Source: a virus (taxonomy: Duplodnaviria; Heunggongvirae; Uroviricota; Caudoviricetes). Taken from it: a DNA stretch of 64,000 bases. The translations under genes and the position numbers were made by a program. This document shows positions 11,734 to 64,000 of this stretch, in pieces. Every line of letters starts with the position of its first letter. The stretch's first letter is position 1. The notes under the pieces were generated by a model. The model was not told the DNA's origin. It did no database searches and saw nothing but the letters and a program-made list of their open reading frames with translations. The stretch lies in the IMG/VR virus record IMGVR_UViG_3300035501_000173, one strand, 5' to 3'.

Positions 11734-11734
11734 T

Positions 11735-12820
11735 ATGGCAGGATGTATGAATAAAAATGATAGAGGATACCAGTCGTTAAGTAGAATGGCTGGTATCCCT
11801 TCTATGGTATTAGACGTTTATTGTCAAAAGTATTTAGATTCATTTAATAGATTACCTAACTTAGATGAATTACCCCTTGTGGATTCATCTAAGCATTTAA
11901 ATGAATCTTTAAAAACAAAATAGATTGGAGATTCAAGTTTTGCTAGTAATGAAGCTATACAAAAAACTACAGGAGCACAGTCCTTAGGAGAAGCGCAAGT
12001 AAAGCTTAATAATACGTATAGAGATTTACAAGTAAACTTAGTGGAAGTTACAGATAAATCATCTTTACTTGAAGTATAGCATAGACCTAGTGTATTTAAA
12101 GAACTTAATCAAGAATATACAGGGGAAAATTTTGATGTTCAATCTGATACTGACAAACGTGTAGTTCTGCGAAATATGCTTGGTAAACTAAAAGATTTTT
12201 ATGGCATTAAAATTAATGAAGTTACGTCTAAACAATTATGTGAAGGTGACTTTGCTAATATAATACCAGATGCTAAAACCGCTAAAGCCTTTATTTATAA
12301 TAACGAAATATATATAAATACGGATATTGCAGATATAGATGCACCTATACATGAATTAATGCACATATTTTTAGGTGGTATGCGCTATACTAATCCGACT
12401 ATATATTTTAATTTAGTGTCTAAAGCATAGCAGTTTAAGAATTTACAAAGTCTAAGTAAGGTATATCAAGATAGAACTCAATCTGATTTTTTAGAAGAAG
12501 CTTTTGTTTCAGAGTTTTCTAAGCTTTGCGCTGGTATGCACAGTGAATTTGATTCTTGGTCTGCTGAGGATCTTAACCCGTTATTATATGAAGTCCGTAG
12601 AAATATGGACTCAGCTTTAATGGGTAATAAAAGTGTTAATAGTATTGATCCTAATGAACTTTTTAAAGCAAGTTTCTTAGATATTGCTATGCGCACAAAA
12701 TCTCCTGAATTAAATAGAAGCGATTTTAGTATTCTAAATCTCGCTGAATTACATAGACAGAATGCGAATATTAAATCTAAGATGCTAAAAGATGGTGACT
12801 TAGTTGAAAAATGTGATTAA
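11735..12820 (+). CDS. 361-aa protein with an HExxH zincin-like motif (…DAPIHELMHIFLGG…). It carries 3 in-frame TAG codons and a TAA stop. Possible metallopeptidase.
   Basis: The ATG lies 1 nt after the gene-1 stop. Track ORFs 11735, 12176 and 12536 share a frame and are separated only by TAG. The HELMH motif was seen in the translation. Confidence 0.55.
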
Positions 12821-12822
12821 GT

Positions 12823-15800
12823 ATGGCTTGTAAATTTATATATAAAGGCAATAGAGTTTTTAATTCTGAAATTGCACTTGATGAGTTTCTTATTAATAGT
12901 AAGAAGTATTAGGAAGGTTCTGATATTGTATTTGAGTTAAGTACAATTTAGAAACAGCGGGGTGCTAGAATTAAACAACGTGGTAAGGCAGCTGATAAGT
13001 TAATTACTCATAATCCTGTAATATTTGATACAGATTTATTCGAGGATTATGAAATGAATGAGTTCGGTTCTGATAACTATGGCGTTACATTCGCTCTTAA
13101 ATAGTATGTAGATGCGGAAGGTCACCCACTTTTTCCTATATTTAATCTGGAAAACTACTGGCAACATAAAATGCCAGACTGGTAGAAACAAGAATATTGG
13201 ACTAAAGGTTATTAGGATGATACAGGTGAAGTACATAAATGTGATAAGTACGAGTATCAAGCTGTTTGGGGAGATAAAGATCCTAATGATATTACAGCAG
13301 CTCCTACTAATGACTAGTTGGAAGTTGGTAAAAAAGTAATGGAGAGAGTTTGGCCTATGCAAGGTTTTATGGGTACTGGTGTACATAGAATGATTGCAGC
13401 TTATTGGAAATGCTAGACAGCTCATAAAGGTAGGGCTAGTGCTACACAAGTTAAAGCAGAAATGACCAAAGCTCTAGATTTTCAATTAATAGGAAGTGGT
13501 AATAACAATCCTTTATTATCAGAATTTAAAGGCATTAAATACTCAGATTTTCTTTCTGATAAAGTAGATGATACTTACTCAAAATGTAGAGCTATTCACG
13601 ATGAACTTAATTCAAAGTTTTTAACAGATGAGTAGCGTAAATCTGGTATGGAATTGTATTTCTTACCTGAAACCGCCATTACTACAGAAGTTGATGACTT
13701 TGAACATCCCGATAAGAAGAGAAACTTATTGGGTAATGTAGACTTATTTGTAATTGATCCGTCTGGTAACATTCACATTATTGACTACAAAACTTCACCT
13801 AAAGAATATAATGAGTACAACTCAGCTAAAATTAGAACATTCTACTATTAGTTAGCTACCTATAGACGTTTGACAGAGCGTATGGGTTTTGCATTAGACC
13901 ATAATTCTAATGTGTATGTAATACCTATTAAGTTTGAAAACTTCTAGATTGATCCAGAACAAACTGATGTTACAAAGCTTTGTAAATTTGATAATCTTAA
14001 ATTACGTGAGGGAAGTTCTGGTATTTTAGAGCGTTTGGAAGTTAAGGCAAGTCTTAGTTCTACAGGTGTAAACTCCGATACTATTAATAGTAACTTGGAT
14101 AAAATCATTCCTATTAAGAATACTAAAATCATGGCTGATGGTGATATTCTGGATGATGTTAAAACTTAGATGAAAGCCTGGTTTCCAAGTTTCGGTAAGT
14201 ACAATGAAATTACTAAAGAGTATGTTGTCAAGATGCTTAAACGTAAAGGTCGTGATAAGATAAATCCGAACAGTTTGAAATATACTTATAAGGTTGGTAA
14301 GAAAACTGTAATTACTGATAGCTTTGAAGCTCTTGTAGATGGGGTATACTAGGAATATTAGAAGATGGAAGAACACGTTATGGATAGAACTTAGGGTGTT
14401 AAAACCATCTTACAAGAAGCTATAAATAATAAGGAAAATGTAGTCATTGATACAGGATATGCTCATAGCTCTCGTAAATTTGCAAGAGAAAGTTATCTAG
14501 AAAATTTGTTAAACCCTTATACTACTGGAGAATATGAAATCCTTGATGATTATAATGAAGCCACAGAACGTCTTGGAATAATATTACTTAAAAATATACA
14601 TACCAATAAAATTGATGTATTAGTAGTAGATACTAGTAAACATGCTTTTGATGATGAAATAGCACTAGGTGGTACTGAGAATAGTCCAGGACGTAATAAG
14701 ACTTTAACAGGAACTTTTATTTCTGATGTTACTGCAAGAAATAAACCTAATGAGCTAGTACTTGATAGTACTTATGGTAATATTAGAATGATGGAAGTTA
14801 TGTAGGCTTTAAATAATATGTCTGCTTTATTTAATAGTGATTCCGCAGGAATGGAATCTACATTAGGAGAGATTAAAATGTTTAATCAATTTCATAATGA
14901 TGGTTGGACAGCTTCTAATGAACAACTTCTTTACAACTTTAAAGAATTACATAAGGCTAATAAAACAGAAGACTAGATTCATTTAGGTAAGGATATAAAA
15001 ATGTGTAGTTAGCTCGATCTTATTAAGCATAGGTGTAATGAGATTATGGCAAATCCAGAACATGATAGAAAATGGAATGGTATTCAAACTGCTATAGATA
15101 ATACACAAAACTTTACAGTTAATCCTATTATACTTAAATCTCAGCTAATCGGATTAGCACATGACATTGAAGAGAAATTTAAGTTAAAGAATGATACTAA
15201 TGCTAGAAACTTGGAAGGTGATAAAGCAGAAGCATATAGTTTCTTAGCAAACTTATATTCTGCTATTGCAGAAATTGATGGTATTCATTTTAAATAGCAA
15301 ATTAAAGACCATTCTGCTTTCTTAAATTAGTCTGGTGTAAAAAGAATTTTCAAAGAGGGTTGGTCTGGAAATAGTCTTGATAATCCAGGAATGCTTGATT
15401 CTGACACCCTTAATAAGATGGGTCAACGTCTTAATGAAGCCTACTAGCTGACTCGTGACGAGATCCAAAATATTTCAAAGAAGATTTATACATTGAGTAA
15501 AAAATTGAAGGAGGAAAACAACTTCGGATATTTGAAATCTCGAACTATCGGAAATGAAGCATCTATTTACAAAAATTTATATGATGATACTTATGAAGAT
15601 GATTTAGTATTTAAAAACCCATTTGATTCTCACGGAGTAACATTGTCTGAAACTGAAAAGGAGTTTTTAAAGCAATCATTGCTTTTAATCAATCATAATC
15701 GTTATGGAGATGTAAATACTATGGATGACCTAGAATTAGCTATTATGCAGGATCCATATAAATATCTCCGAGTACCATTAACTGAGGGTACTAATGCTTC

Positions 15801-17790
15801 TAAAGTTGCATATAAAGGTATGTGGGAAACCATTAAGGAGAAGTTTAAAAACCTTATCCCTACAAAACTTAATATGCAAAGAATGTTTAAAGGTTTGCTG
15901 GTGGATGAAACTTTATTGGATAACGAGGATGTTCGTAATAAGTATCAAAATAAGGATGCGGAACTTTGGGAAATGAATACTGCATTTGATGCTGGTGAAA
16001 CTGAATAGGCTAGAAAATCCATGTTAGCTAATTATGGTAAGAATTATTTTGAGCATAATCTAGAATTACTTACCATGAAACATGCTTATGCTTATACATT
16101 AAAGAATAATATTAATAAAATATTTCCACTATTTAAAGCATGTGCTTTACAACTAGAAATGGGTGGTGCTATAATGAATACTCGTTTCGCAGAAGACATT
16201 TAGTACTTACATGACTTTATTACTAATAAAGTACTTAATATGTCTATCTAGGATCCTAAATGGAGAACTGCTTAGTACGTATGTGGTAACTTAATGTCTG
16301 GAGCTTCTAAACTAGCATTAGCTTTTAACCCAAAACAATTTTATCAAGCTATTGATGGTTTATGGAAAGATATTTCTTTAGTGATAAGACAAAATGAATA
16401 CGATCAAGCTTTCAGTCAGTAGAATATGAAAGATTCTTTCTGGTGGGTTTACAGAGATTTAACCCATAATTGGGGTGACGGTAAATCATTGGCTTAGGTT
16501 CTTAATGAATAGTATGGTATTAATGATATGGATATGAATTCCTACATTGATAAAACTAAACCTAATCAATTTGGTATCTTTAATTTGGATAATGTAATGT
16601 TCCATTTCGCGTCACGTCCAGACTTCTATAATAGAATGACTATTTTTGGAGCTCAGATGAGACATGATGGTTGCTTTGAAGCACACGACGAAGACGGTAC
16701 ATATCATTGGGAAAAAGACTTGCGCTATAATATCTATGCTAAATATTGTAAGGATGAAAGTGCTGTCCCAGCTTCTTTAAAAGCTGAATATAATAAGCAG
16801 AAAGCTCGTTATAAAGCTGCGGCTACACAATTTCAAGCAGAGGGTGCTAAATTTAAGAATTCTGATGGTGAAATGGAGGATTTTGTTGTAGACCTCTCTA
16901 ATCCAAAGCCATTACCTAGAGCGTACACAGTTAAAGAAGCTGAAAGTATTAAATCTTTAGCAGATTTAATTTATGGATATTATTCTCATGAAAAGAAATC
17001 TATGATTCAATCAACGACTGCTGGAGCTTTATTTATGCAAATGAATACATTCTGGTCTTCTAAGAAAAACTAGTGGTTTTTACCAGGAGGAGTACGTATG
17101 TAGGGTACATATGAACATTATTCTGAAACTTAGGAAGATGGAACTAAAAAGTATTATTACCAAGATGAGAATGGTAATATTACAGATTAGGAAACGGATA
17201 CACCATTCATGGTTTGGAAGGGTCGTTATTAGGAAGGAATCATGGTAACATTAGCTAATATTTTTAATGATACTTTCTATGGTGATGAAACTGGTAAGAA
17301 AGGCTTAGGTAATGCTATTGATAAGTATTGGAACGCAACTGATGAAAACCTTCGTAATGCTTATAGAAATAATTTAAAGTAGTTACTATATGATTTATTA
17401 ATGTTTCTATTCTTAGGAATGCTTATTGCACCTGCTTTAGAGAATGCTGCGAAAGCTCATGCTAAAGAAGTGGGTAATGGTGACTTAGGTGATGCTATGA
17501 TAAATAATGCTACGGTGAATTTAACTTCTATGTTATCTACATCTACAGATGATTTTAACGCACTTAAATCTATTTTTGGTAGAGGTGTACAATGGACACC
17601 ATTCTCTATATCTACACTTACAAACTCTTATTAGAGAGTAAGTTCAGCTGTATCAGGTAATAGTGATTGGTATGATGCTATTGTTAAAATGTCCGCAGCA
17701 GGAAGAACATAGGAGAATATGTTTGATTACATAAAAATAAATACACTCGGTCGAAAGATTGGAGACAATGGAGTAGTAAAAGAGGATTGA
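12823..17790 (+). CDS. Large protein of 1,655 aa translated through many in-frame TAG codons. It ends at TGA 17788-17790 and has a hydrophobic segment near its C-terminus (LLYDLLMFLFLGMLIAPAL). Function unknown; virion or cargo protein candidate.
   Basis: The ATG at 12823 follows TAA 12818-20. The frame is continuous through track ORFs 13648, 14170, 14506, 15046, 15493, 16021, 16528 and 17401, with only TAG interruptions. The first TGA is at 17788. Confidence 0.65.
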
Positions 17791-27020: not shown

Positions 27021-27253
27021 TTTACTATTTTATAAGTTACATTTTCTTCATTCCAACCTTCTAAATCAGTTCCTGATATACCAATACCTCTAGACTGTAG
27101 AAACTTTATTAAAGTATTTATTATGTCTTTAGGCTTTTGTATATTTTCAGAATATCTCTTTAAAAAGTCTTCATCCGATTCTCCTTCATTTTGTTCAAAA
27201 TAAAGGGTTCTATTCATATTCAAGCTTACTTGAATTCCTTTATACATACTCAT
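27017..27253 (-). CDS. Hypothetical protein.
   Basis: ORF of 78 aa. Confidence 0.4.
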   Translation of the reverse strand: MSMYKGIQVSLNMNRTLYFEQNEGESDEDFLKRYSENIQKPKDIINTLIKFLQSRGIGISGTDLEGWNEENVTYKIVK

Positions 27254-28110
27254 AACAACGCTTCAAATTTAGTTCTGTCTTTAGTTTGAAAATCCTTAAT
27301 AAGTTTATGATGAATTTGTCTAATCCTCTCAGAACTTAATGCAAACTTACGGGATATTTCATTATAATCCATTTCATTACACCCTTTAAGACCATACAGC
27401 ATACAAATAATATCATGGTCACGACTACTTAATTTCTCAAGTATTTGCGATATTCTATCTGCGATATAATTATTATTAGTAATAGCTTCTGGATTATCTG
27501 AAATTGGATTAGGAATGCAATCTCCAATAGTGCAATCTTCTGAATCATCAATACTAGGAGCATCAATACTTACACAGTTATTTGTAGAAGTTTGTACATC
27601 TCTAATCATATCCTCGGTAAATCCTGATAATTCTGAAAGTTCTTCAACAGAAGGCTCACGTTCATTTAACTGCTTAAACTTAGCTGTTAATTTATTTAGC
27701 TTAGTTTTAGGTTCTATTTGAGAAGTCGGAAGTCTTACATTATTTCCTGTATAATAAATAGATTTTAATATAGCTTGTCTAATCCACCATACAGCATAAG
27801 AAATAAATCGAAAGCCTCTTCTTTCATCAAACTTTGTAGCTGCTACAACCATTCCAGCATTTCCCTCAGCAACTAAGTCTTCCAAAGGAACACCTCTACC
27901 TTGATACTGTTTAGCAACAGTAATAACAAATCGAAGATTGGCAGATACTAATTTATTAAGAGCATTCTTATCACCCTCTCTAATTCTTTTAGCTAATTCA
28001 CACTCCTCTTCTTTACTAATCATTTCAATATGACTTACATCTTTTAAATACATATTAAAAGATTCCGTATTTCTAGGGGTGATACTTTTAGTTATATTAA
28101 TAGCTTTCAT
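27250..28110 (-). CDS. Sigma-70 family RNA polymerase sigma factor, phage-encoded.
   Basis: Region 2 reads LEDLVAEGNAGMVVAATKFDERRGFRFISYAVWWIRQAI and region 1.2/2.1 reads EEECELAKRIREGDKNALNKLVSANLRFVITVAKQY. The C-terminal region 4 helix-turn-helix reads MDYNEISRKFALSSERIRQIHHKLIKDF. Confidence 0.85.
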   Translation of the reverse strand: MKAINITKSITPRNTESFNMYLKDVSHIEMISKEEECELAKRIREGDKNALNKLVSANLRFVITVAKQYQGRGVPLEDLVAEGNAGMVVAATKFDERRGFRFISYAVWWIRQAILKSIYYTGNNVRLPTSQIEPKTKLNKLTAKFKQLNEREPSVEELSELSGFTEDMIRDVQTSTNNCVSIDAPSIDDSEDCTIGDCIPNPISDNPEAITNNNYIADRISQILEKLSSRDHDIICMLYGLKGCNEMDYNEISRKFALSSERIRQIHHKLIKDFQTKDRTKFEALL

Positions 28111-28355
28111 TCGTTCCTATAAATTTTAGTAGTATGCCAATTATTTTTACGATATGTGTCACGTACTTGTTCTATATAATCTCTAGCTAGTGCTACACTT
28201 GCAAATTCACGTGTGCGAAGGCAAGCTGGTATATCATACGGAGTTGGGGTACACTCAAGTTTCCAACCATTCCAATGGTGACGCTCTACTAAATAACGAG
28301 CGTCACCATTATCATTTACTTGTCTAAGTATTCTAAATTTAAGCATTATCCTCAA
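28107..28355 (-). CDS. Hypothetical protein.
   Basis: ORF of 82 aa overlapping both neighbours. Confidence 0.4.
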   Translation of the reverse strand: MRIMLKFRILRQVNDNGDARYLVERHHWNGWKLECTPTPYDIPACLRTREFASVALARDYIEQVRDTYRKNNWHTTKIYRNE

Positions 28356-29715
28356 TATTTACAGAATTGTCAGCAAGTTCTTGTTTAACAAAAGCAAAAC
28401 ATTTTAACTTAAAAGCTTCAGAACGCATATTTTCTACCTTAATAACTAGTCCTTCATGAGGAACTTTATTATTACAACTAGGTGAAGGTTCTTCCATATA
28501 AAAATCTTTGTTATTAGTGAGGAAATTTATAAAATTCTCACAATAACTTAGATTATCATCATAGCCATTCATACCCCAAGTAAGCTTACCAGCTTCTCCG
28601 TAGTAATATTCAGTTACTGGAATTAAACCATTATTCTTACACCATTGTTGTACTTCTTTAGCAGAAAACTCATGTACTTTACCATCCTCATTAGTTAAAG
28701 TAATTCTATATACTCGTACTTTAAAGTTTATTTCTGGTTCGAATGATACTTTACCATTTTCATCAGTTTTTGGAGGGCAACATCCATAATCATAATTCTT
28801 CTGAATGAAATTACCATTAGGTAAGTATCCAACTATCTCGTAATATAAGGACATACCTTTCCAGAGTTTGTCTTTAACATACTCATGTGCATACTTCCAT
28901 ATATCACAAGTTTCTTCAACACCTTGATATCTATTCTTAATTACATTCTTAGAAGAATATAAATATTCATAGCTTCTCCAGTTAATACACCAATCACCTA
29001 TTGTATTAGATAACCAGTTTATTAGCTTATCTCGCCAAGATAACTTGCTCTTACAAAGTAAATATGCTGACACTCCGCTAGTACCATGAATTTTCTCAGT
29101 AATACTAACTATATCATCATAATTTACTACATAAGGACATTTTTTAATAAGGACTGTTTGATAGTGTAGTCTAAATTGTCCATCAAGGAGGAGGTCAAAT
29201 CCTCCGGAATCCTTAACTTCTTTAAATTTAGATACTTGTACTTGGTTTCTTGCTTTCTTACATATCCAGATTGATCCTCCTTTAAATTCGATTGTGTCGA
29301 ATTCTTTGTTTTCGTCTTTACTTGACTCATAATCACTTATAGTTGTATAATTTTGTAACCATTCTAAGAGTATCTTATACTCTATTAAAAAGCCTTCTGA
29401 AACTAAACCCTTCAATTTAATAGCAGTTACTTTACCATTATCCTCAAAGAATCCTTTCTTACTAGTATCTGCATTAAGATTAGAATGCCTATACAAGTTT
29501 GTAAATTTCAGAAAATCAGGATTAATAGTAGATAAAGTTGGAAAATATACATACAAACCAGTAGGAGAATCAACACTAACAATAACTCTATAACCATCAA
29601 CAGTAGCAACCTTTAATTTAGTTACTTCGGGATTTGGATGATTAGAAAATTCTGTAATGTTAATAATCTTAGCAAGATAGTTAATATCTGCATTAGTACT
29701 TTTTATTAATTCCAT
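28339..29715 (-). CDS. Rnl2-family RNA ligase with an N-terminal extension domain.
   Basis: Nucleotidyltransferase motif I EKIHGTSGV, the KxHG form specific to the Rnl2 family. Motif IV reads HEGLVIKVE and motif V reads KLKCFAFVK. Confidence 0.55.
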   Translation of the reverse strand: MELIKSTNADINYLAKIINITEFSNHPNPEVTKLKVATVDGYRVIVSVDSPTGLYVYFPTLSTINPDFLKFTNLYRHSNLNADTSKKGFFEDNGKVTAIKLKGLVSEGFLIEYKILLEWLQNYTTISDYESSKDENKEFDTIEFKGGSIWICKKARNQVQVSKFKEVKDSGGFDLLLDGQFRLHYQTVLIKKCPYVVNYDDIVSITEKIHGTSGVSAYLLCKSKLSWRDKLINWLSNTIGDWCINWRSYEYLYSSKNVIKNRYQGVEETCDIWKYAHEYVKDKLWKGMSLYYEIVGYLPNGNFIQKNYDYGCCPPKTDENGKVSFEPEINFKVRVYRITLTNEDGKVHEFSAKEVQQWCKNNGLIPVTEYYYGEAGKLTWGMNGYDDNLSYCENFINFLTNNKDFYMEEPSPSCNNKVPHEGLVIKVENMRSEAFKLKCFAFVKQELADNSVNIEDNA

Positions 29716-32213: not shown

Positions 32214-33305
32214 CATTTATGTTATCCTAAAGACTCTTTATTCTTTAGTTCTGCAGTTTCATTAGTTATATCTGCAGGTCGGACTATATCTTCTCCAACA
32301 ATATTTATAATTTGTTGGAGCAGGGCACTCGTGGTAGCATTACTATCCTCGCTAAGGACTCGGCTACTAGTCTCTGAACCTTCAAGAGTATTACTACTCA
32401 AGCTTGGCTGCTGATTGTCCACCTCTGGAGTTTCCAGCAATTCACCCTGTTTTAAGACGCCAATTATCGCTTTATATTTTTCAGATCGTTCATGTGCTTT
32501 AGTATTATGGTATGTAGTATGTTCAGAACGTGTTAGTATTTGAAGATTTTCTAAACGATTGTCTGTTTTTATTTCATTTATATGATGCACATCATATTCA
32601 TCTTTTAGAACAATCCATCCATTAACATTCTCAAAATACTTAGGATCAAACTTATCATGATTTCTTTCAATTACTAATCTATGCTGTCTAACTCTAGATC
32701 CTTGAACACTTTTATCACAGGGTTTTGGATGTCCTGGACAATACTCTAACACGTAACCTAAATTAGAAATTGTTTCTTTACCCTTAAAACTTGCATTTTT
32801 ATCACCAGTAAGTCCATATTGATGATTATTTTCTCCTAAATATGTAGTTTCTCTTAATTTGTTACTACATTCTTTACTACAACAAATTTGCGTTTTAACT
32901 TTTTTTATTCTACTAGGTTTCGCATAGAATTGGTTACCGCAAATAGGGCAAGTACAATTTAACTCAGTCTTTTTTCTAAATAAAGCTGAGCAAGTAGTGC
33001 TACAACATTGATAGGTCTTTGCACGACTCGGAGTAACGTATTCTATTTTACCACAATAAGCACATATTACTTCTATTTTATCTACAGCATTCTTTTCATT
33101 CGGTTTTCCTTTACTGTGTTCATCCGAACATTGTTTACAACAATATTTTCGATGAGCACTTTTCTTTCCTAAGAAAGTTTTTCCACAATTTAAACAAATA
33201 TATTCTACCATACTAATTTTTTTAATATGGTTAAATATAGACAATTTTATTGGAATAACCTAATAAAAATAATAAATTGTGTAGTAACTGTTAATATATA
33301 ATTTT
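32214..33305 (-). mobile_element. Group I intron (~1,092 nt) interrupting dut and carrying an HNH homing endonuclease ORF.
   Basis: dUTPase is split exactly inside motif 3 (…TPGCIDA | DYRGE…). Exon 1 ends in U (GCU), the insert ends in G, and the internal ORF is in a different frame. A stop follows AKIIY immediately after the junction. Confidence 0.6.
32222..33244 (-). CDS. HNH homing endonuclease with N-terminal Cys-rich zinc-ribbon repeats, encoded within the intron.
   Basis: HNH motif HHINEIKTDNRLENLQILTRSEHTTYHN. There are multiple CxxC pairs at the N-terminus. Confidence 0.75.
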   Translation of the reverse strand: MSIFNHIKKISMVEYICLNCGKTFLGKKSAHRKYCCKQCSDEHSKGKPNEKNAVDKIEVICAYCGKIEYVTPSRAKTYQCCSTTCSALFRKKTELNCTCPICGNQFYAKPSRIKKVKTQICCSKECSNKLRETTYLGENNHQYGLTGDKNASFKGKETISNLGYVLEYCPGHPKPCDKSVQGSRVRQHRLVIERNHDKFDPKYFENVNGWIVLKDEYDVHHINEIKTDNRLENLQILTRSEHTTYHNTKAHERSEKYKAIIGVLKQGELLETPEVDNQQPSLSSNTLEGSETSSRVLSEDSNATTSALLQQIINIVGEDIVRPADITNETAELKNKESLG

Positions 33306-33635
33306 AGCGTCTATACAACCTGGCGTGTTAAGAACAGTTATACCGTGTTTAAGAGCTAATCCGCTACGAGGTCTTACTTTTATTTCATAACCTTCTGGAA
33401 TTGCAACGAATAAACCAGTAGGAATAAGTGCTCTACCTCCGGGACGGATAACCACAGCACCACCTTCTGTATAAAATTGATTATCTAAGATACAATCAAC
33501 TCCTTTAACATTAAGTATTCCATGAATATCTGCTCGCACATCCATACCAGCAGAACCATCGGTTTCATAACTAGGAAGTGGATTATTCCATTGTTCATCA
33601 TAATATTGCTTTTGCTTTACTTTTACTTCTACCAT
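33306..33635 (-). CDS. dut: dUTPase, exon 1 (motifs 1-3: [38 protein letters not shown]).
   Basis: N-terminal dUTPase motifs. The track ORF 33291..33635 reads 15 nt into the intron before its stop. Confidence 0.7.
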
Positions 33636-36325: not shown

Positions 36326-37705
36326 CTATTGATAAATTAAAACATTCTTTTTAGTTCTAGATAAAGCTACATATTGAAGTTGCCTTCTTACAGCTTCATC
36401 ATTACAACTATTTATATTACGAATATCTACAAATACACTATCAAAGGTACTACCTTGGGATTTATGTGTACTTATAGCATAACTATAGTCAAAAGATTTC
36501 TTTCGGATTAATCTACCATCCACGTATAAATCAATTGGTGTAGTAAAGCTTCCCATCATTTCAAAATATTTTTTCCAATAATAGTTAGCTTTTTGCCTTT
36601 CACCTAGTTGTTTTAGTTGAATTGCTTGTTGTCTGTAACCTTCAATTTTTAAAGATAAAGACTCAAGATAATCTTTAGAAATATCTTTAGATAAAATAGA
36701 TATATTTTCACTACTTTTTGTTAATGAATCATAAAGTTCCATACTAATCCCAGGCAAAGAGCCAAAATTTGGAATATGAATTTCTGTTTTAAAAGGTTCA
36801 TTTACAATAATATAATCCATAGAATTATAAAATTTGAACCCATTAAACTCAAGATTCTCACAACCAATAAGGAATTCACCCTTATGATACTGACAATCTT
36901 TACCAAAGAATGCTTGGTGTATCGCTTGATTGTAAGCCTTAACTCTATCATTCGTATAACATAAAATCTTAGTACTTAATATATCTCCTTTTTTCATAGC
37001 TTTCGCTAATGCAATTTTTGCTTCTTTCAAAAATTCCTTCATATCAGACGTTACAAGAAGACTTCCTTCCTCTCCGATGCAATTATCAAAGTGCTTCATT
37101 GAATGCGTTCTGAGTGTCTGTAACACGTCAATAAAACCATTTTTATCGGACTGTCTGTATATCTTTTGAAGTTCTACACAGGGTTGTGTATGAATAACTT
37201 TTGAAAGAAAATCTTGTTTTACAGGCTGTAATTGTGCAAAATCTCCAGTAAATATAATCTGTGATTCTTGTTCTTGCACTTGTGCAATTAAACAGGAATA
37301 CAAATCATTATTTATCATCGAAGATTCATCACAAATCACAATACCACGCTTAGGAATAGATGTAACATTACCACTACATTTAAACATAAGATTACGAAAA
37401 TCAAGAGCAAAAATGTCGAGATTAGGAGAAAGCGAGAGTAATTTGTGCAATGTAACTGCTTCTCTTTCTGTATATCTTTCAAGCACCAATGCCGCTTTAT
37501 GAGTTGGGGCACATAGTGCGTATTGAATACGATTGCGTTCACACCAATCAATTATATAATTTACTAATACACTTTTACCAGTACCAGCACTACCGTAGTA
37601 GAGACAGGCAGGTTCTTTATGATCATTAATAAATTTTATGACCATATTAAGAGCCTTTTCCTGATCTTCTCCTAAGATAATGCTGGTATCATGTTTATTT
37701 ATCAT
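36326..37705 (-). CDS. SF1 DNA helicase, Dda/RecD-like.
   Basis: Walker A motif GSAGTGKS, a CAPTHKAA motif and the C-terminal motif ISTHKSQGSTFDSVFVD. Confidence 0.8.
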   Translation of the reverse strand: MINKHDTSIILGEDQEKALNMVIKFINDHKEPACLYYGSAGTGKSVLVNYIIDWCERNRIQYALCAPTHKAALVLERYTEREAVTLHKLLSLSPNLDIFALDFRNLMFKCSGNVTSIPKRGIVICDESSMINNDLYSCLIAQVQEQESQIIFTGDFAQLQPVKQDFLSKVIHTQPCVELQKIYRQSDKNGFIDVLQTLRTHSMKHFDNCIGEEGSLLVTSDMKEFLKEAKIALAKAMKKGDILSTKILCYTNDRVKAYNQAIHQAFFGKDCQYHKGEFLIGCENLEFNGFKFYNSMDYIIVNEPFKTEIHIPNFGSLPGISMELYDSLTKSSENISILSKDISKDYLESLSLKIEGYRQQAIQLKQLGERQKANYYWKKYFEMMGSFTTPIDLYVDGRLIRKKSFDYSYAISTHKSQGSTFDSVFVDIRNINSCNDEAVRRQLQYVALSRTKKNVLIYQ

Positions 37706-46229: not shown

Positions 46230-46568
46230 TTAAAATGGTAGCTGGTCACGAAGTAGTTTTGTAATTTGTGCAGGCATGTCTTTTGCTTTCATACCCAAGT
46301 CTGGAAACTTTTTACACCCATCAGAAAACCACTCACAAACTAAAGAAAGAACCTCTATTAGATTGTCATCAATAGGTTCTCCCTTAGTACACATGCGAAT
46401 CACTTCGTAATGTGTTATTCCAGGTTTTTTCTGCTTAAGAGCATTTGTAAGATAACAAATAGTACTAATAAGTCCTATTTTATCTCCTAAATCTTCAGAA
46501 GCAGGAATTCCAAAGAATAATTCATGTTTTAGGCGATATTGCCAATCTTTATATCTATTCGTATCCAT
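46230..46568 (-). CDS. Hypothetical protein.
   Basis: ORF of 112 aa. Confidence 0.5.
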   Translation of the reverse strand: MDTNRYKDWQYRLKHELFFGIPASEDLGDKIGLISTICYLTNALKQKKPGITHYEVIRMCTKGEPIDDNLIEVLSLVCEWFSDGCKKFPDLGMKAKDMPAQITKLLRDQLPF

Positions 46569-47598
46569 AAGCTTTATACCAAGCGATTAATTTAAGTAAC
46601 CAGATAAATTCAACTACCCCAGCTTTATACCAGTGCTTTTTCATAGAAACAACACTACTATTAAACTTGTCTGTAGTTTCAACTACTAAAAAATTACCAC
46701 TAACAGAAGGATTTTTCAAATCATACTTATCAGCACCAAGCTGTAATAACCAAGTATAGAAAGCAATCTCTCTATAATAATGGAAATTCTTAACGGCATA
46801 ATTAAATCCATCTAAAGGCTTTCCAGTAGTTTTAACATCATTAATCACAATAGAATTATTTAATTGATCAATGGTGTAATTATCCAGTTTAGCTTTTAAC
46901 TTCATAATGAAAGGTTCTACATCAGGTAGATTTACTTCTACATCTAATAGTATAGTAGTTTCATTATAGCTAGGAAGCTCATTATCTAGAATGTCTTTAG
47001 GATGTAACAATTTCTGTATAGCTTTATTAGCTTCTATAGAACTCATTACATTCTGCAATCTATCTAATGAATTAGCATCCAAATAAATTGGCTTACGAGT
47101 ATCAGTAGAAGATTGCTCAAATTTAAACCTTTCTTTAAAATAAGGCTTGATAGTTGCTTTAACTTTGCTTAATTGATTTGCTGTTAAGAAACCATGATAA
47201 TAATCAACTGTACTAGCAGCATCTCTAATTTTTTCATCGTCAGGCAATTCTCCAGTTTTACTTGCATATCCCCAAAGTAAATCAGCCATCATTCCTACCT
47301 TAGCGGAAGGAGCTTTAACGTCTTCACAAAGGAAAAAGGTGTCAGGTTGCAAGCTGAGTTCATGCACTGCCGAACCAAAAGCTAAACTAGATGAAAACTT
47401 GTTATGTTTTGATAGCCCTTCAAAGAAATCTTTAGGACAACCTCCTTGCATTGGGTTAATTAAACCCATTCTTGAGTTACTAATGTAATCTGCATACTCT
47501 TTACCAAAATATACAGAATCATCAATATCAGTTATCTTTAAAGTTTCTACTAAAGGCTTAATAGTTACTTTAGATAACATTTGCTTATTTGGAATCAT
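46555..47598 (-). CDS. Hypothetical protein, possibly a PD-(D/E)XK (YqaJ or lambda-Exo-like) exonuclease.
   Basis: D…EVN…KLKAKLD…INDVKTTGK arrangement resembling a D/ExK nuclease core. This is a weak call. Confidence 0.3.
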   Translation of the reverse strand: MIPNKQMLSKVTIKPLVETLKITDIDDSVYFGKEYADYISNSRMGLINPMQGGCPKDFFEGLSKHNKFSSSLAFGSAVHELSLQPDTFFLCEDVKAPSAKVGMMADLLWGYASKTGELPDDEKIRDAASTVDYYHGFLTANQLSKVKATIKPYFKERFKFEQSSTDTRKPIYLDANSLDRLQNVMSSIEANKAIQKLLHPKDILDNELPSYNETTILLDVEVNLPDVEPFIMKLKAKLDNYTIDQLNNSIVINDVKTTGKPLDGFNYAVKNFHYYREIAFYTWLLQLGADKYDLKNPSVSGNFLVVETTDKFNSSVVSMKKHWYKAGVVEFIWLLKLIAWYKAYGYE

Positions 47599-48130: not shown

Positions 48131-48418
48131 CTAATTAACTTCTATAACTTTAAAATTCTTATTAATATCAGTTTCTACTTCTTTATCGTATGGATATACG
48201 TAAAAAGCGTGCTGCAAATCTTCCCAACAGGATTCATATTCTAATTGAAATCCTTCTTTTGTAGCCCACTTAGAACGTTTTTTATCACGTCTGCACATAT
48301 CCAAATAATGCTGAAATTCCTCCTCGAAAGTTAGAACCTCAGCATTTTGTATTTTAGGTTTACACCTATGCAGTACTAATAATTTATGTTCCTTACGATA
48401 AGTTTCATCAAAGTTCAT
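48131..48418 (-). CDS. Hypothetical protein.
   Basis: ORF of 95 aa. Confidence 0.45.
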   Translation of the reverse strand: MNFDETYRKEHKLLVLHRCKPKIQNAEVLTFEEEFQHYLDMCRRDKKRSKWATKEGFQLEYESCWEDLQHAFYVYPYDKEVETDINKNFKVIEVN

Positions 48419-49433
48419 GTTTTAACAATTGATAAAATAATGTATCAGGTAATACAACTAACTAATGATTTAAATCGTTTTCTACACTTTGCTAAATTAA
48501 AATTTCAACATCTTTTAAATCGTTTATAATATAAGGTATTTCTAACAGTTTAATTTTATTATCTTTGCAGAATTTTCTAATATAATTGTCTCGAATTTGC
48601 TAATCTTCTAATTTTAATTCTCCTCCAAACTATTTAACTGGCACATAATGCTAAATCCCATTATATTCTATAAATATATTACAGTCTGGTAAATAAAAAT
48701 CAACATAACAATATCCAGATACACGAATATCTTTTGGAGCTTGAATTCTATACTGCGAAACATAATTAATATTTAAGTTTTTTAAAACTGTTTCCACTAA
48801 AAATTCACCCTTAGACTAATTACATTTAGGACACCTTGCATGATTATGTAGGTGGTCATGAGCATTCTAAGTAATTTCTCCATGTATAGGGCAAATATAT
48901 GTAATTTTGTTCTCAATTCCAGTATATATTGTATTAGAATAATTATAATCAGGATTTAATTTCTGACATCTAGAAATAAATTCTTCTTGCGACATTAATA
49001 ATTTTTCAGATATACTTTTTCTACCACATTTTGAACATCCTTTCCCAGACAAATGATTTGCAGGATCCTGTAAAAATTCACCATGTTCAGGACATATTAT
49101 TATACCTTTAGTTCTGCAATTAATATAATTAAATTTACTATAATCATACTTATTATTATGAACTGCATTAGCATCTTTTATAAAACTATCTATATCTTTA
49201 GCTCTATCATTACTTAGTTTCTAAAATTTACATTTTGGGCAACCCTAGCCTTTTGTATGAGCATCCGGTGTTTGCCAAAATTCTCCATGTTCATTACCAT
49301 TAACGTCAAGTTCATGACAAATTATACACACTTTATCTTTTTTAGTATGATACTCAGCTTTAGAATAATCATATTTATTACCATGAGCTTCCTAAGCCTA
49401 CTCTACAAATTCAGCGGTTGTTAACTTTCTCAT
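48408..49433 (-). CDS. Freestanding homing-endonuclease-like protein with tandem Zn-ribbon repeats and a C-terminal Vsr/DUF559-like PD-(D/E)XK domain. It is written with about 11 in-frame TAG sense codons.
   Basis: Manual translation through TAG gives MRKLTTAEFVEqAqEAHGNKYDYSKAEY…CIICHELDVNGNEHGEFWQTPDAHTKGqGCPKC, with the repeat (NKYDYSK…HGEF…GCxKC) occurring three times. The C-terminus reads GYCYVDFYLPDCNIFIEYNGIqHYV…IRKFCKDNKIKLLEIPY. There is no TAA or TGA until 48408-10. Confidence 0.55.
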
Positions 49434-61647: not shown

Positions 61648-61694
61648 ATTATTTTAGTTTATATAAAAATAGCTGGATGTTACTCCAGCTTTAG

Positions 61695-61766
61695 TTGAAT
61701 ACAGAGGAGTCGAACCTCTACTAGTAGAACCAAAATCTACTGTGCTAGCCATTACACAAGTATTCA
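61695..61766 (-). tRNA. tRNA-Gln (anticodon UUG).
   Basis: Manual cloverleaf: acceptor TGAATAC/GTATTCA, D-arm GTGT…GCAC, anticodon stem GTAGA/TCTAC with loop TTTTGGT (anticodon TTG), T-arm AGAGG-TTCGACT-CCTCT. CCA is not encoded. Confidence 0.7.
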
Positions 61767-61804: not shown

Positions 61805-62329
61805 TCAGTCTTTTTCGTACTTTCCATTTCGCATAAGCTGATATTCTCTAGCTCTACGAATTTTATGTCCTCTTAATGGACATTTAAGAGTTTTGACTGC
61901 TGCTAAAGCATAGTCTAAATCCTCTTGTTTGAAAGTACTATCATTGACAGTTCTACAATTAAGTAGACGGTGGTAAAATGTTGACCTCGCTACACCATAC
62001 TCTCCACAGTTGTACACTAAACTTCCAAGGCCGTCAATAAAACCTTGTGAATATTTAATTTTACTGGGTAACTTACTAAGAAGCCTATCCACCGATTTGT
62101 TAACCGCTGCAATATCCTGAACGAATAATTGCTCTGCTTTCTCTTTGCTAATTCGTTTATAGGTTTCACCCTTCTTTAAAAGGTGTCCATAACCGATTTG
62201 ACGATGATTGTCTACGACTAATAACAGACCTTCATGCTCTTTAATGAACTTTTGTCCATTAGGAGAGATTTGATGAGCACTAGCGAATAAACAAGTTAAG
62301 AAAAACAGGATAATTAATTTCAATTTCAT
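61805..62329 (-). CDS. Endolysin, GH24 (T4-lysozyme-like) muramidase with an N-terminal signal or SAR sequence.
   Basis: Catalytic motif EGLLLVVDNHRQIGYGH. N-terminal hydrophobic segment MKLKLIILFFLTCLFASA. Confidence 0.7.
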   Translation of the reverse strand: MKLKLIILFFLTCLFASAHQISPNGQKFIKEHEGLLLVVDNHRQIGYGHLLKKGETYKRISKEKAEQLFVQDIAAVNKSVDRLLSKLPSKIKYSQGFIDGLGSLVYNCGEYGVARSTFYHRLLNCRTVNDSTFKQEDLDYALAAVKTLKCPLRGHKIRRAREYQLMRNGKYEKD

Positions 62330-62361
62330 ATTATTTGTAGTTGGTTATTATCTAAAGCTAA

Positions 62362-62416
62362 GTTGGGGGAAGTGTGGGAATCGAACCCACATTATATACC
62401 ATACTTCCAAAATACC
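62362..62416 (-). ncRNA. tRNA-like acceptor/T-arm minihelix or a tRNA 3'-half remnant. It is not a complete tRNA.
   Basis: Minus-strand read is GGAAGT-ATGGTATATAAT-GTGGG-TTCGATT-CCCAC-ACTTCC. This is a perfect T-arm with the TTCGATT loop and a 6-bp acceptor-like stem. No D-arm or anticodon arm lies within a plausible distance. Confidence 0.3.
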
Positions 62417-62566
62417 TTTCTGCCTAGTATTTCTACTATTCTGATACCTATTTAAATTGCGCAATTTTCTCGGTCAGTACCAGTAAAAGACTCCCTACGA
62501 TTTAAAGCTTATTACGTAGTTTACCGTCTTTGCAATGCCGTATGAGATTTCCCAGCGATACCCTTA

Positions 62567-63017: not shown

Positions 63018-64000
63018 ATCTAAAAATTAATTTAATTAAAGCAAGCATACAGCATAAATACAAGGCTTATAAAAATTATAAGCATTTGTACAATATGCTT
63101 TCACAGCTTTCTTCGCAAAATTTAATACTCTAGTTGTCATAAAAATTCTTTGAATTTAACAATTAACATGGCTATCATTTGAGATAGTCTTTTATCTAAC
63201 CTAGGGAATTTTGTACCGCTAACAGGGAACGATCCTGTGTTTAAAGAATGAAAATCTTTTGTCCTGACCTCTAGACGATAGCGGCTTAGTGGCTTACCTT
63301 TGCAGATAAGCCCCACCTTTTACCAGTTATGCTGTTGGCAAGCACCAGTTATTCTTGTTGAAAACTGACAAAAAAGTCGGCAGTAGTTTTTTGTAGATAA
63401 ACCTGCGAAAACATTTAAGGAATTCGATTATATATTTGATCTTCGAACTCATCATAATATTTGTCCTTACATGGACTATAAGACTCTCTATTAAATGTTT
63501 GATTTCTTCTATTCTTGTGTGAAGAATGTTTACTTGAATGCTTGAGAGCTTCTTGTTTCTTCCTATTCCAACTCATTTTGTTCTTCTATTATATCTAGTT
63601 TTATTAAATCCACTAATACTTCTACTATCTTGGTAGTGAAAGCCTTTAGGCACATCTGTTACCTCTAAAAAATGATTTGCATAGATAGGTTGTGCATCAC
63701 AGCCTACACCTACACAGTAGCTTATTTTTTGAACCATAATAAATTTAAATAAAACTAACTATCTTCACAGACTGTTAGTTTAGTAACTAAAACAATAAAT
63801 ATATATAAAATGACAGTATATTTAGGTGGCACTGCCCCACACTCATTAATCGTAGTACTCCGAATTAACGCGAGTTTCTAATTACTCCTAAACACCTTTA
63901 TAGTTAACAAATACAAGGTTTCTCACACCCTTCATACTGTATTGTTACTAACAGCTAATTTCCCTGTGTTAGTCAGGATACTAGCAAATCACCTACTACT

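Follow-up and report, generated by a model that had tools for sequence, protein, structure and literature searches.

The final 64 kb of a 137,880-bp contig (73,880 + 64,000 bp), the longest contig with an identical lysozyme gene, were analysed; this whole stretch of 64,000 nt is referred to below as the window. Close to its right end, on the minus strand, lies a gene for a glutamine tRNA with anticodon UUG, which is followed by an intrinsic terminator and preceded by a lysozyme gene that is transcribed in the same direction. The features of the window that bear on the function of this tRNA are the following.

1-11733, plus strand: g1, a giant TAG-recoded late ORF with 79 in-frame TAGs (3,921 codons overall, with its start 33 nt before the window)
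11735-12820, plus strand: g2, a TAG-recoded late ORF of 361 aa with 3 in-frame TAGs, from ORF analysis
12823-17790, plus strand: g3, a TAG-recoded late ORF of 1,655 aa (PF12705 family) with 35 in-frame TAGs, which served to assign the meaning of TAG
36326-37705, minus strand: SF1 helicase gene of the early block, ending in a genuine TAG stop
48408-49433, minus strand: homing-endonuclease gene (PHROG 559, E = 1e-65) with 11 in-frame TAGs, inside the standard-code early block
61671-61690, minus strand: intrinsic terminator hairpin AGCUGGA-GUAACA-UCCAGCU with a U-run, from a terminator scan and folding
61695-61766, minus strand: tRNA-Gln(UUG), 72 nt (boundary also called at 61694), from ARAGORN, Rfam RF00005 and folding
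61731-61733, minus strand: anticodon UUG (tRNA positions 36-34), from direct reading of the sequence and the Rfam alignment
61805-62329, minus strand: GH24 lysozyme-like gene, 174 aa, standard code (PHROG 7 endolysin, E = 5e-18; PF00959)
62364-62408, minus strand: tRNA-like minihelix, from folding, a T-arm match and covariation in five family members
63214-63285, minus strand: tRNA-Glu(UUC) (boundary also called at 63213), from ARAGORN and Rfam

The gene at 61695-61766 has the properties of a bacterial-type tRNA. It scored 55.7 bits against Rfam RF00005 (gathering score 29, E = 2.7e-9), and the cloverleaf is its lowest-energy fold (-20.5 kcal/mol, z = -2.4), with all four stems perfect and a canonical T-loop and U33. 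The anticodon loop is UUUUGGU, with G37, and the CCA end is not encoded in the gene. A reading of the DNA made earlier from the sequence alone (the sequence-only reading) had placed an intact tRNA-Gln with anticodon UUG and loop TTTTGGT at this position, and this is borne out, the strand being minus. Its concern that a tRNA finder might reject the fold proved unfounded, as ARAGORN and Rfam both accept it. The terminator starts 4 nt past the 3' end of the tRNA and folds with -13.7 kcal/mol (z = -4.0), a stability that was equalled in none of 200 shuffles. As degenerate tRNA-like elements are present in the same cluster, the gene could be regarded as a decaying or non-functional remnant like these neighbouring fragments. 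This is very improbable in view of the high Rfam score and the intact stems, T-loop and U33. Besides, the gene was invariant (72 of 72 positions) across eight independent assemblies, possesses a terminator of its own and has an ortholog in the nearest relative.

The body of the tRNA contains U1-A72, G2-C71, A3-U70, the discriminator A73, G10, U35, G36 and U38. It differs from the identity set of Escherichia coli GlnRS at A3-U70, A73 and G37. Two of these departures, A73 and G37, were found also in its phage relatives, which have U1-A72, A73 and the UUUUGG loop with G37 in common. The nearest annotated phage tRNAs were all tRNA-Gln of Bacteroidales or crAss-like phages, with 82-86% identity over 65-83% of the tRNA. 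The sequence-only reading had proposed a comparison with the identity elements of host tRNA-Gln. The GTDB genomes were searched with a pattern composed of the D-arm, the loop and the T-loop of the phage tRNA. This pattern occurred at 44 bacterial loci, 32 of which belong to Bacteroidota; ARAGORN called tRNA-Gln(ttg) at 43 of the 44, the remaining locus being cut by a contig end. Judged by these sequence comparisons, the body is that of the tRNA-Gln type of the host phylum (Bacteroidales). Charging by the host glutamine system fits with such a body and is probable. An identical copy of the tRNA was not present in GenBank phages, IMG/VR or the GTDB genomes: searches of IMG/VR, exact as well as degenerate, gave 0 matches each, as did the exact search of the GTDB genomes.

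Similar tRNA-Gln(UUG) genes reside in small tRNA clusters in the replication blocks of LoVEphage, of the uncultured phages cr271_1, cr130_1 and cr111_1 and of phage csAssE-Sib, a 151-kb phage with a Met-Gln-Arg-Cys cluster within its replication block. The carrier phage described here differs from LoVEphage, cr271_1 and the others in that it recodes TAG. A tRNA-Gln(UUG) can also accompany a true suppressor. The related contig L028 has Gln(UUG) beside the opal suppressor Sup(UCA) as separate genes in one phage tRNA block, and the phage-like contig L047 has Gln(UUG) plus a distinct tRNA(CUA) gene. Genes for tRNA-Gln(UUG) are well known from the tRNA clusters of crAss-like phages, and it is expected that they also occur beside TAG recoding.

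The sequence-only reading had taken this tRNA for the only intact one, which does not hold. ARAGORN called a second minus-strand tRNA gene in the window, tRNA-Glu(UUC), and no more than these two; the second outscores the first in Rfam (57.0 versus 55.7 bits). Moreover, the source contig stops at window position 64000, within the tRNA cluster. In other assemblies of the same phage the genes for tRNA-Asn, tRNA-Ala and tRNA-Met follow within 2 kb past the right end of the window. In the direction of transcription the order is Met(CAU), Ala(UGC), Asn(GUU) and Glu(UUC), then two small ORFs with a tRNA-like element after them, and finally the lysozyme gene followed by Gln(UUG). The Met, Ala, Asn, Glu and Gln tRNAs are borne by contigs L005-L016, which belong to this phage, so that the cluster comprises at least five tRNAs.

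Look-ups of exact protein sequences showed that many assemblies, from JGI and from Logan, contain this phage. One contig of 115,126 bp (Ga0376457_0000008, JGI 3300036769) shares 13.6 kb with the window at 100% identity and reaches 73.9 kb to the left of it, so that window position 1 corresponds to its position 73,881. The genome size of this phage is at least 140 kb. All assemblies break at most about 1.6 kb upstream of tRNA-Met, and every one breaks at most about 3.4 kb to the right of an 87-aa gene. JGI metagenome contigs were scanned twice with sequence from beyond the tRNA block and gave 0 matches. For the 166-aa protein encoded beyond tRNA-Met the sole homolog was 46% identical and on a 1-kb contig, with none in IMG/VR. 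Megablast against GenBank phages yielded no match, and neither GenBank nor IMG/VR contained a near-identical genome.

In the part of the cluster outside the window, a match to an HDV-like ribozyme begins at the base after tRNA-Met(CAU) (L005 424-488; also in L007 and L008). With the HDV-F-prausnitzii model it scored 28.5 bits, which is under the gathering score of 44. Theta (HDV-like) ribozymes flank phage tRNAs, and tRNA-Met is among their three commonest partners (Kienbeck et al. 2024, PMC10879173). The match adjoining tRNA-Met here is a candidate for this arrangement, being sub-threshold and to a related Rfam family only. Beside tRNA-Gln or tRNA-Glu no HDV-like element was detected in the window (Rfam, E <= 10), and the ribozyme sequence had 0 matches when IMG/VR was scanned for it. 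Short repeats in the tRNA block, present in two copies, lack colinearity and resemble relics of duplicated tRNAs. The window did not contain an intergenic motif that was suspected of being repeated.

The window is divided into two blocks by a switch of strand and GC skew near 17.8 kb. The plus-strand late block (1-17,790) consists of the three ORFs g1-g3, with 117 in-frame TAGs in total (79, 3 and 35). The ORF that precedes g1, to the left of the window, spans at least 2,226 codons and contains 45 TAGs. Reading TAG as sense increases the share of the window covered by ORFs of 100 codons or more from 72% to 90%, and the longest ORF grows from 1,039 to 3,910 codons. The minus-strand early block (17,852-64,000) is a replication and nucleotide-metabolism module in the standard code, which encodes DNA polymerase A, NrdD/NrdG, ThyX, DNA and RNA ligases, a primase, DnaB, helicases, RNase H, a sigma-70 factor and a dNMP kinase. 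Its genes end with TAA or TGA, and in-frame TAG is essentially absent save in the one homing-endonuclease gene. In the SF1 helicase the UvrD_C_2 match extends to residue 457 of 459, just before the TAG. This implies that TAG, rare as it is in the early block, is a true stop there.

The best GenBank matches of the polA gene were all crAss-like (Kolpuevirus, 47.5%; IAS virus, 38.5%; cr116_1; crAss001). Together with the crAss-like homology of its replication genes, the phage shows two further traits of Crassvirales, namely opposed gene blocks and a late block that ends in giant proteins. This assignment is based on the genes of the window, the capsid, portal and TerL genes lying outside it.

To assign the meaning of TAG, g3 was compared with ten full-length homologs, residues being counted from the six closest. 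Opposite the TAGs of g3, 85 of 201 aligned residues (42%) were Q, against a background of 4.0%, and in 7 of the 35 TAG columns Q was invariant. The spectrum of residues opposite the TAGs matched that opposite the CAA and CAG codons of g3 itself. These three observations confirm, at the level of sequence conservation, that TAG stands for Gln in the late genes of this phage, as the sequence-only reading had supposed. Of all Gln codons of the late block, 39% are TAG.

An anticodon UUG reads CAA, and CAG by wobble. CAA and CAG were counted 158 and 24 times in the late genes and 237 and 65 times in the early genes; CAA thus forms 79-87% of the CAR codons in this genome of 32% GC. The codons of other tRNAs of the cluster (GAA, AAT and GCA) are likewise abundant. 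The anticodons of the cluster match abundant A/U-rich codons, and this is ordinary codon supply in an AT-rich phage. The idea that the tRNA raises the supply of Gln for a Q-rich recoded proteome survives in part: the tRNA matches the dominant CAA, in early and late genes alike, but 'Q-rich' is an overstatement, as Gln accounts for 5.0% of the codons in the late block (TAG counted) versus 2.9% in the early block.

Taken together, tRNA-Gln(UUG) is very likely a canonical, functional elongator tRNA of a large crAss-like phage (Crassvirales) with a Bacteroidales host, and TAG is not its codon. It belongs to a cluster at the upstream end of the standard-code early or replication block and would be transcribed with the early genes up to its own intrinsic terminator. 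It would decode the dominant CAA plus CAG, which is the usual codon-supply role of phage tRNAs. The decoding of TAG as Gln in the late genes would then need a separate agent, for which a dedicated tRNA(CUA) elsewhere in the genome is the likeliest candidate.

Another conceivable function of the cluster, in place of the tuning of codon usage, is counter-defence or takeover. The phage tRNAs would then mainly stand in for host tRNAs that host anticodon nucleases cleave or that disappear after the shut-off of host transcription. An RNA ligase (PF09414/PHROG 968) is encoded in the early block, and in other phages RNA ligase repairs cleaved tRNAs. The location of the tRNAs on the early strand and the presence of tRNA-like elements of decoy size in the cluster would also agree with such a function. 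On the other hand, the anticodon loop does not depart from the Bacteroidales type, the UUUUGG loop being present in host-type tRNAs as well, and the five anticodons fit abundant A/U-ending phage codons, as codon supply predicts. Counter-defence as the main function therefore appears quite unlikely, although the two roles are not mutually exclusive.

The sequence-only reading had also considered that the UUG anticodon might read UAG as a near-cognate codon. In its strongest form this would make tRNA-Gln(UUG) itself the agent of recoding, helped by over-expression and perhaps by neutralisation of RF1. Gln is indeed the right amino acid, and no CUA tRNA was found. Near-cognate insertion of Gln at UAG is known in bacteria and eukaryotes, at a low level. 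Two non-Watson-Crick pairs are needed, one at codon position 1 (U:G36, a mismatch) and one at position 3 (G:U34, a wobble), and a CUG anticodon, which the phage does not have, would be a better near-cognate reader. There are 79 TAGs to be passed in g1, 45 in the ORF upstream of it and 35 in g3. For only 10% of g1 to reach full length more than 97% reading per TAG is required (0.1^(1/79) = 0.971), which is far above reported near-cognate rates. Moreover, the gene is part of the early, standard-code unit in which TAG is a true stop, and the same type of tRNA occurs in non-recoded and TGA-recoded relatives, in bacterial chromosomes and, in L047, beside a separate tRNA(CUA). The number of TAGs in g1 and the occurrence of the same tRNA type elsewhere lead us to reject near-cognate decoding as the mechanism; its probability is minimal.

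The search for a dedicated suppressor gave a negative result in the sequence available, in agreement with the sequence-only reading, which had noticed no CUA suppressor in the window. ARAGORN called no CUA tRNA in the window, whether with default settings, with relaxed thresholds of 80-95% or with introns allowed; the last two settings added only obvious false positives. Rfam at E <= 10 detected no CUA tRNA there, and no tRNA beyond Gln and Glu. A custom scan of the window for CUA anticodon stem-loops revealed only three isolated hairpins, which are not accompanied by a T-arm. With the flanking sequence from other assemblies included, a CUA tRNA was absent from about 73 kb of this phage (the window with its 64 kb plus flanks of 6.75 kb on the left and 2.4 kb on the right). 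The tRNA-Gln gene itself does not have the CUA anticodon of an amber suppressor, but UUG, in the window and in all eight assemblies.

The nearest relative, with a lysozyme that is 65% identical and a longest contig of 153.6 kb (153,638 bp), carries an ortholog of tRNA-Gln(UUG). It is TAG-recoded too: the first gene on the opposite strand past its divergent junction has 17 in-frame TAGs and is clean when TAG is read as Q. The first 19 kb of its early block contain Glu(UUC), Met(CAU), Gln(UUG) and Leu(UAA) tRNAs and two tRNA-like elements. A CUA tRNA was not found from the divergent junction through these 19 kb. The lysozyme homologs P0015 and P0022 were considered as informative relatives as well and were dropped, since they belong to unrelated, non-syntenic phages.

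In code-15 phages such as phAss-1 and the amber-recoding Zeta crAss-like phages the tRNA-Sup(CUA) usually has a body of the Gln type and is located in the phage tRNA block (PMC10607447, PMC12386605). The phage studied here likewise has TAG = Gln in its late genes, but its Gln-type tRNA has a UUG anticodon, which is cognate to CAA and CAG and not to UAG. Suppressors arise from genes of the tRNA-Gln(UUG) kind by point mutation of the anticodon, and in alpha-group crAss-like phages a change of tRNA-Gln(UUG) to UUA has been described as a 'pre-emergent' suppressor, also a crAss-like Gln tRNA in a small block (PMC7886860). In contrast to the alpha-group case, UUG is kept in 8 of 8 assemblies here, and CUA is two substitutions away.

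Because the contig ends inside the tRNA cluster and the genome is at least 140 kb, the lack of a CUA tRNA in the window says little. The 'missing suppressor' is mostly an artefact of the position of the contig end and should not be counted as evidence for suppressor-free recoding. That a canonical CUA tRNA is encoded in the remaining 70-75 kb or so of the genome is moderately likely, slightly more so than not.

The tRNA block contains, in addition, RNAs that are missed by standard tRNA finders. The minihelix at 62364-62408, 36 nt upstream of the ATG of the lysozyme gene, is composed of a 6-bp acceptor-like stem, the linker AUGGUAUAUAAU, a T-arm (GUGGG/UUCGAUU/CCCAC) and a terminal C-CCA; it has neither a D arm nor an anticodon arm. 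A minihelix built in the same way, whose stems differ from these and yet are complementary, occurs in the nearest relative (L079 7735-7774, Rfam tRNA 29 bits). With a pattern that specified nothing but linker and loop, three further instances were obtained from unrelated IMG/VR contigs. In the five distinct instances the stems pair at 6 of 6 and at 5-6 of 5-6 positions with two to four pair types per position, i.e. with compensatory changes, where the chance of a stem pairing 6 of 6 is 0.0036 per instance. The relative also has a tRNA-like gene of 69 nt (50.9 bits), directly upstream of its lysozyme gene, whose anticodon arm is just 13 nt (CAAUA-UAG-UAUUG). This gene does not vary among six assemblies and is missed by ARAGORN. 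Since the minihelix and the 69-nt gene both are devoid of an anticodon loop, they are not suppressors. The minihelices and the anticodon-less gene may represent an undescribed family of small RNAs of gut phages.

In its folding energy the noncoding region 62330-62566 (237 nt) is unexceptional (z = +0.25), and a CUA loop is absent from it. A 17-nt match to the 3' end of tmRNA (E = 0.035), together with a stretch that loosely resembles a tag-coding sequence, had suggested a tmRNA in this region. This candidate was rejected, as ARAGORN called no tmRNA, G3:U70 is absent and the region is too short.

It is conceivable, though rather unlikely, that a canonical tRNA(CUA) is missing altogether from this phage and that UAG is decoded by a divergent tRNA-like RNA or by a host factor, with tRNA-Gln(UUG) still reading CAA and CAG. 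The negative results in about 73 kb of this phage and in the junction and early block of its nearest relative point in this direction, and the 69-nt gene and the minihelices demonstrate that odd tRNA-like genes in tRNA blocks do escape ARAGORN. The literature describes many recoded genomes in which a suppressor was not detectable. CUA suppressors were found in only about 40% of TAG-recoded phage genomes (Borges et al., bioRxiv 10.1101/2021.08.26.457843), recoded crAss-like genomes without a suppressor were described by Yutin et al. 2021 (PMC7886860) and at least one complete amber-recoded Crassvirales genome, that of a Segatella crAss-like phage, is devoid of a CUA suppressor (bioRxiv 10.64898/2026.08.21.746148). 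Like those of Borges et al. and the Segatella phage, the present phage combines ordinary tRNAs with recoded late genes and no CUA tRNA, with the difference that its genome is incomplete and the absence covers about 73 kb only. Some 67 kb of late-block sequence lie beyond the region scanned for a suppressor, as does a few-kb gap beside the tRNA block. The odd tRNA-like elements, moreover, all are without an anticodon loop and hence without CUA, and the amber-recoding Zeta crAss-like genomes tabulated, which are complete, all have a CTA suppressor tRNA (PMC12386605). A dedicated tRNA(CUA) in the remainder of the genome consequently continues to be the preferred explanation.

The tRNA-Gln(UUG) gene is in itself of little import. 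What could be of wider significance is the recoding that surrounds it. As a CUA tRNA was found neither in about 73 kb of this phage nor in the junction and early tRNA block of its nearest relative, the two may belong to a clade of large TAG-recoded crAss-like phages that dispense with a canonical tRNA(CUA) and decode about 2% of their late codons, UAG, as Gln by an unrecognised route, which we consider distinctly improbable. Such a route could involve a non-canonical tRNA-like RNA of the tRNA block; near-cognate reading by tRNA-Gln(UUG) in combination with neutralisation of host RF1 would be the least likely form of it. Should their complete genomes also prove to be without a CUA tRNA, the two phages would be well suited for testing how TAG is decoded in the many TAG-recoded phages in which a CUA tRNA is not detectable.

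The sequence-only reading had taken tRNA-Gln(UUG) for the only intact tRNA in the window; this had to be revised, since a tRNA-Glu(UUC) had gone unreported. Past window position 64000, on contigs L005, L007 and L008 of the same phage, the cluster adds tRNA-Met(CAU), tRNA-Ala(UGC) and tRNA-Asn(GUU). This part of the cluster is a recurrent break point for assemblies of the phage, and an insertion of ~720 nt between tRNA-Met and tRNA-Ala, carrying ORFs of 29 and 81 aa, distinguishes strains.

Window 63213-63285, minus strand: tRNA-Glu(UUC), 57 bits
L005 350-1751, L007 1082-2483, L008 1580-2262: tRNA-Met/Ala/Asn stretch
L008 1180-1232, upstream of tRNA-Met: AT-rich mini-tRNA of 53 nt, Rfam tRNA 30.8 bits
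L005 424-488, L007 1156-1220, L008 1654-1718: HDV-like (theta-type) ribozyme match

The mini-tRNA is composed of an acceptor stem of 7 bp, a single hairpin and a T-arm. Over the T-arm and trailer it shares 78% identity with tRNA-Gln, and to judge from this similarity it may be a decayed paralog of that gene. The first base of the ribozyme match follows directly after tRNA-Met; its score of 28.5 bits lies below the gathering score of 44. Published work names tRNA-Met among the common partners of theta ribozymes.

tRNA-like structures were also found in the tRNA blocks of the phage and its nearest relative (contig L079), among them a minihelix with neither D arm nor anticodon arm.

Window 62364-62408, minus strand: minihelix with C-CCA directly after it; the lysozyme-like gene lies 36 nt downstream
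L079 7735-7774: minihelix of the nearest relative
L090 ~11385-11430: minihelix, unrelated IMG/VR contig
L091 ~4010-4055, minus strand: minihelix, unrelated IMG/VR contig
L092 ~1350-1395, minus strand: minihelix, unrelated IMG/VR contig
L079 9915-9983: tRNA-like gene of 69 nt, Rfam tRNA 50.9 bits

The minihelix consists of an acceptor-like stem of 6 bp and a T-arm whose loop is UUCGAUU, joined by the conserved linker (U/A)AUGGUAUAU(R)A. The stems of this covarying family differ in sequence between the five distinct instances, yet are fully complementary in each. As such the family is absent from Rfam, where the sole matches were a 17-nt tmRNA 3'-end and a borderline tRNA. Just upstream of the window copy lies the hairpin motif UACUAGGCAGAAAKGUA (62413-62429, minus strand), of which a second copy (L008 2120-2136) is located ~58 nt upstream of tRNA-Asn; it was not found in the relatives examined. 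The 69-nt gene of the nearest relative, whose position corresponds to ~62330-62410 of the window, has normal acceptor, D and T arms and an anticodon arm of just 13 nt (CAAUA-UAG-UAUUG; loop of 3 nt). ARAGORN made no call on it. Its sequence is the same in six assemblies, and the ATG of the lysozyme gene follows 17 nt after it.

A separate tRNA(CUA) accompanies Lys(UUU), Glu(UUC) and Gln(UUG) on L047, a phage-like contig of 19 kb and 31% GC binned in an Erysipelotrichaceae rumen MAG. A noncoding stretch of 250 nt on this contig is 79% identical to one on L028, a phage contig with Gln(UUG) and Sup(UCA).

L047 1622-1695, minus strand, and 5219-6912, plus strand: loci given for the tRNAs and the noncoding stretch

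Two giant recoded ORFs follow one another in the late block. Pfam searches matched no family in g2, the neighbour of g1, or in g48.

L017 2-6682, left of the window: recoded ORF of at least 2,226 codons, 45 TAGs
Window 1-11733, plus strand: recoded ORF g1, 3,921 codons, 79 TAGs

The early block holds mobile elements and genes that end in TAG under the standard code.

Window 32251-32536, minus strand: group I intron, Rfam 70.3 bits
Window 32222-33211 and 33291-33635, minus strand: loci given with the intron
Window 27250-28110, minus strand: phage-encoded sigma-70-family factor, regions 1.2, 2, 3 and 4 all matched
Window 28339-29715, minus strand: RNA ligase, PF09414, PHROG 968
Window 48408-49433, minus strand: homing-endonuclease gene, PHROG 559, E 1e-65
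Window 36326-37705, 46555-47598 and 48131-48418, minus strand: TAG-ended genes

The intron, which holds an HNH endonuclease ORF, interrupts the dUTPase gene inside the G-x-ID/DYRGE motif (exon 1 ending ...NTPGCID, exon 2 starting DYRGEIGV... at ~32240). In other phages, such RNA ligases mend tRNAs cleaved by host anticodon nucleases. The homing-endonuclease gene contains 11 in-frame TAGs amid the standard-code block, and its translation could be possible only after TAG suppression becomes active. For the helicase, the domain match places the true end at the TAG. Late suppression would give the TAG-ended early genes short C-terminal extensions, up to the next TAA or TGA.
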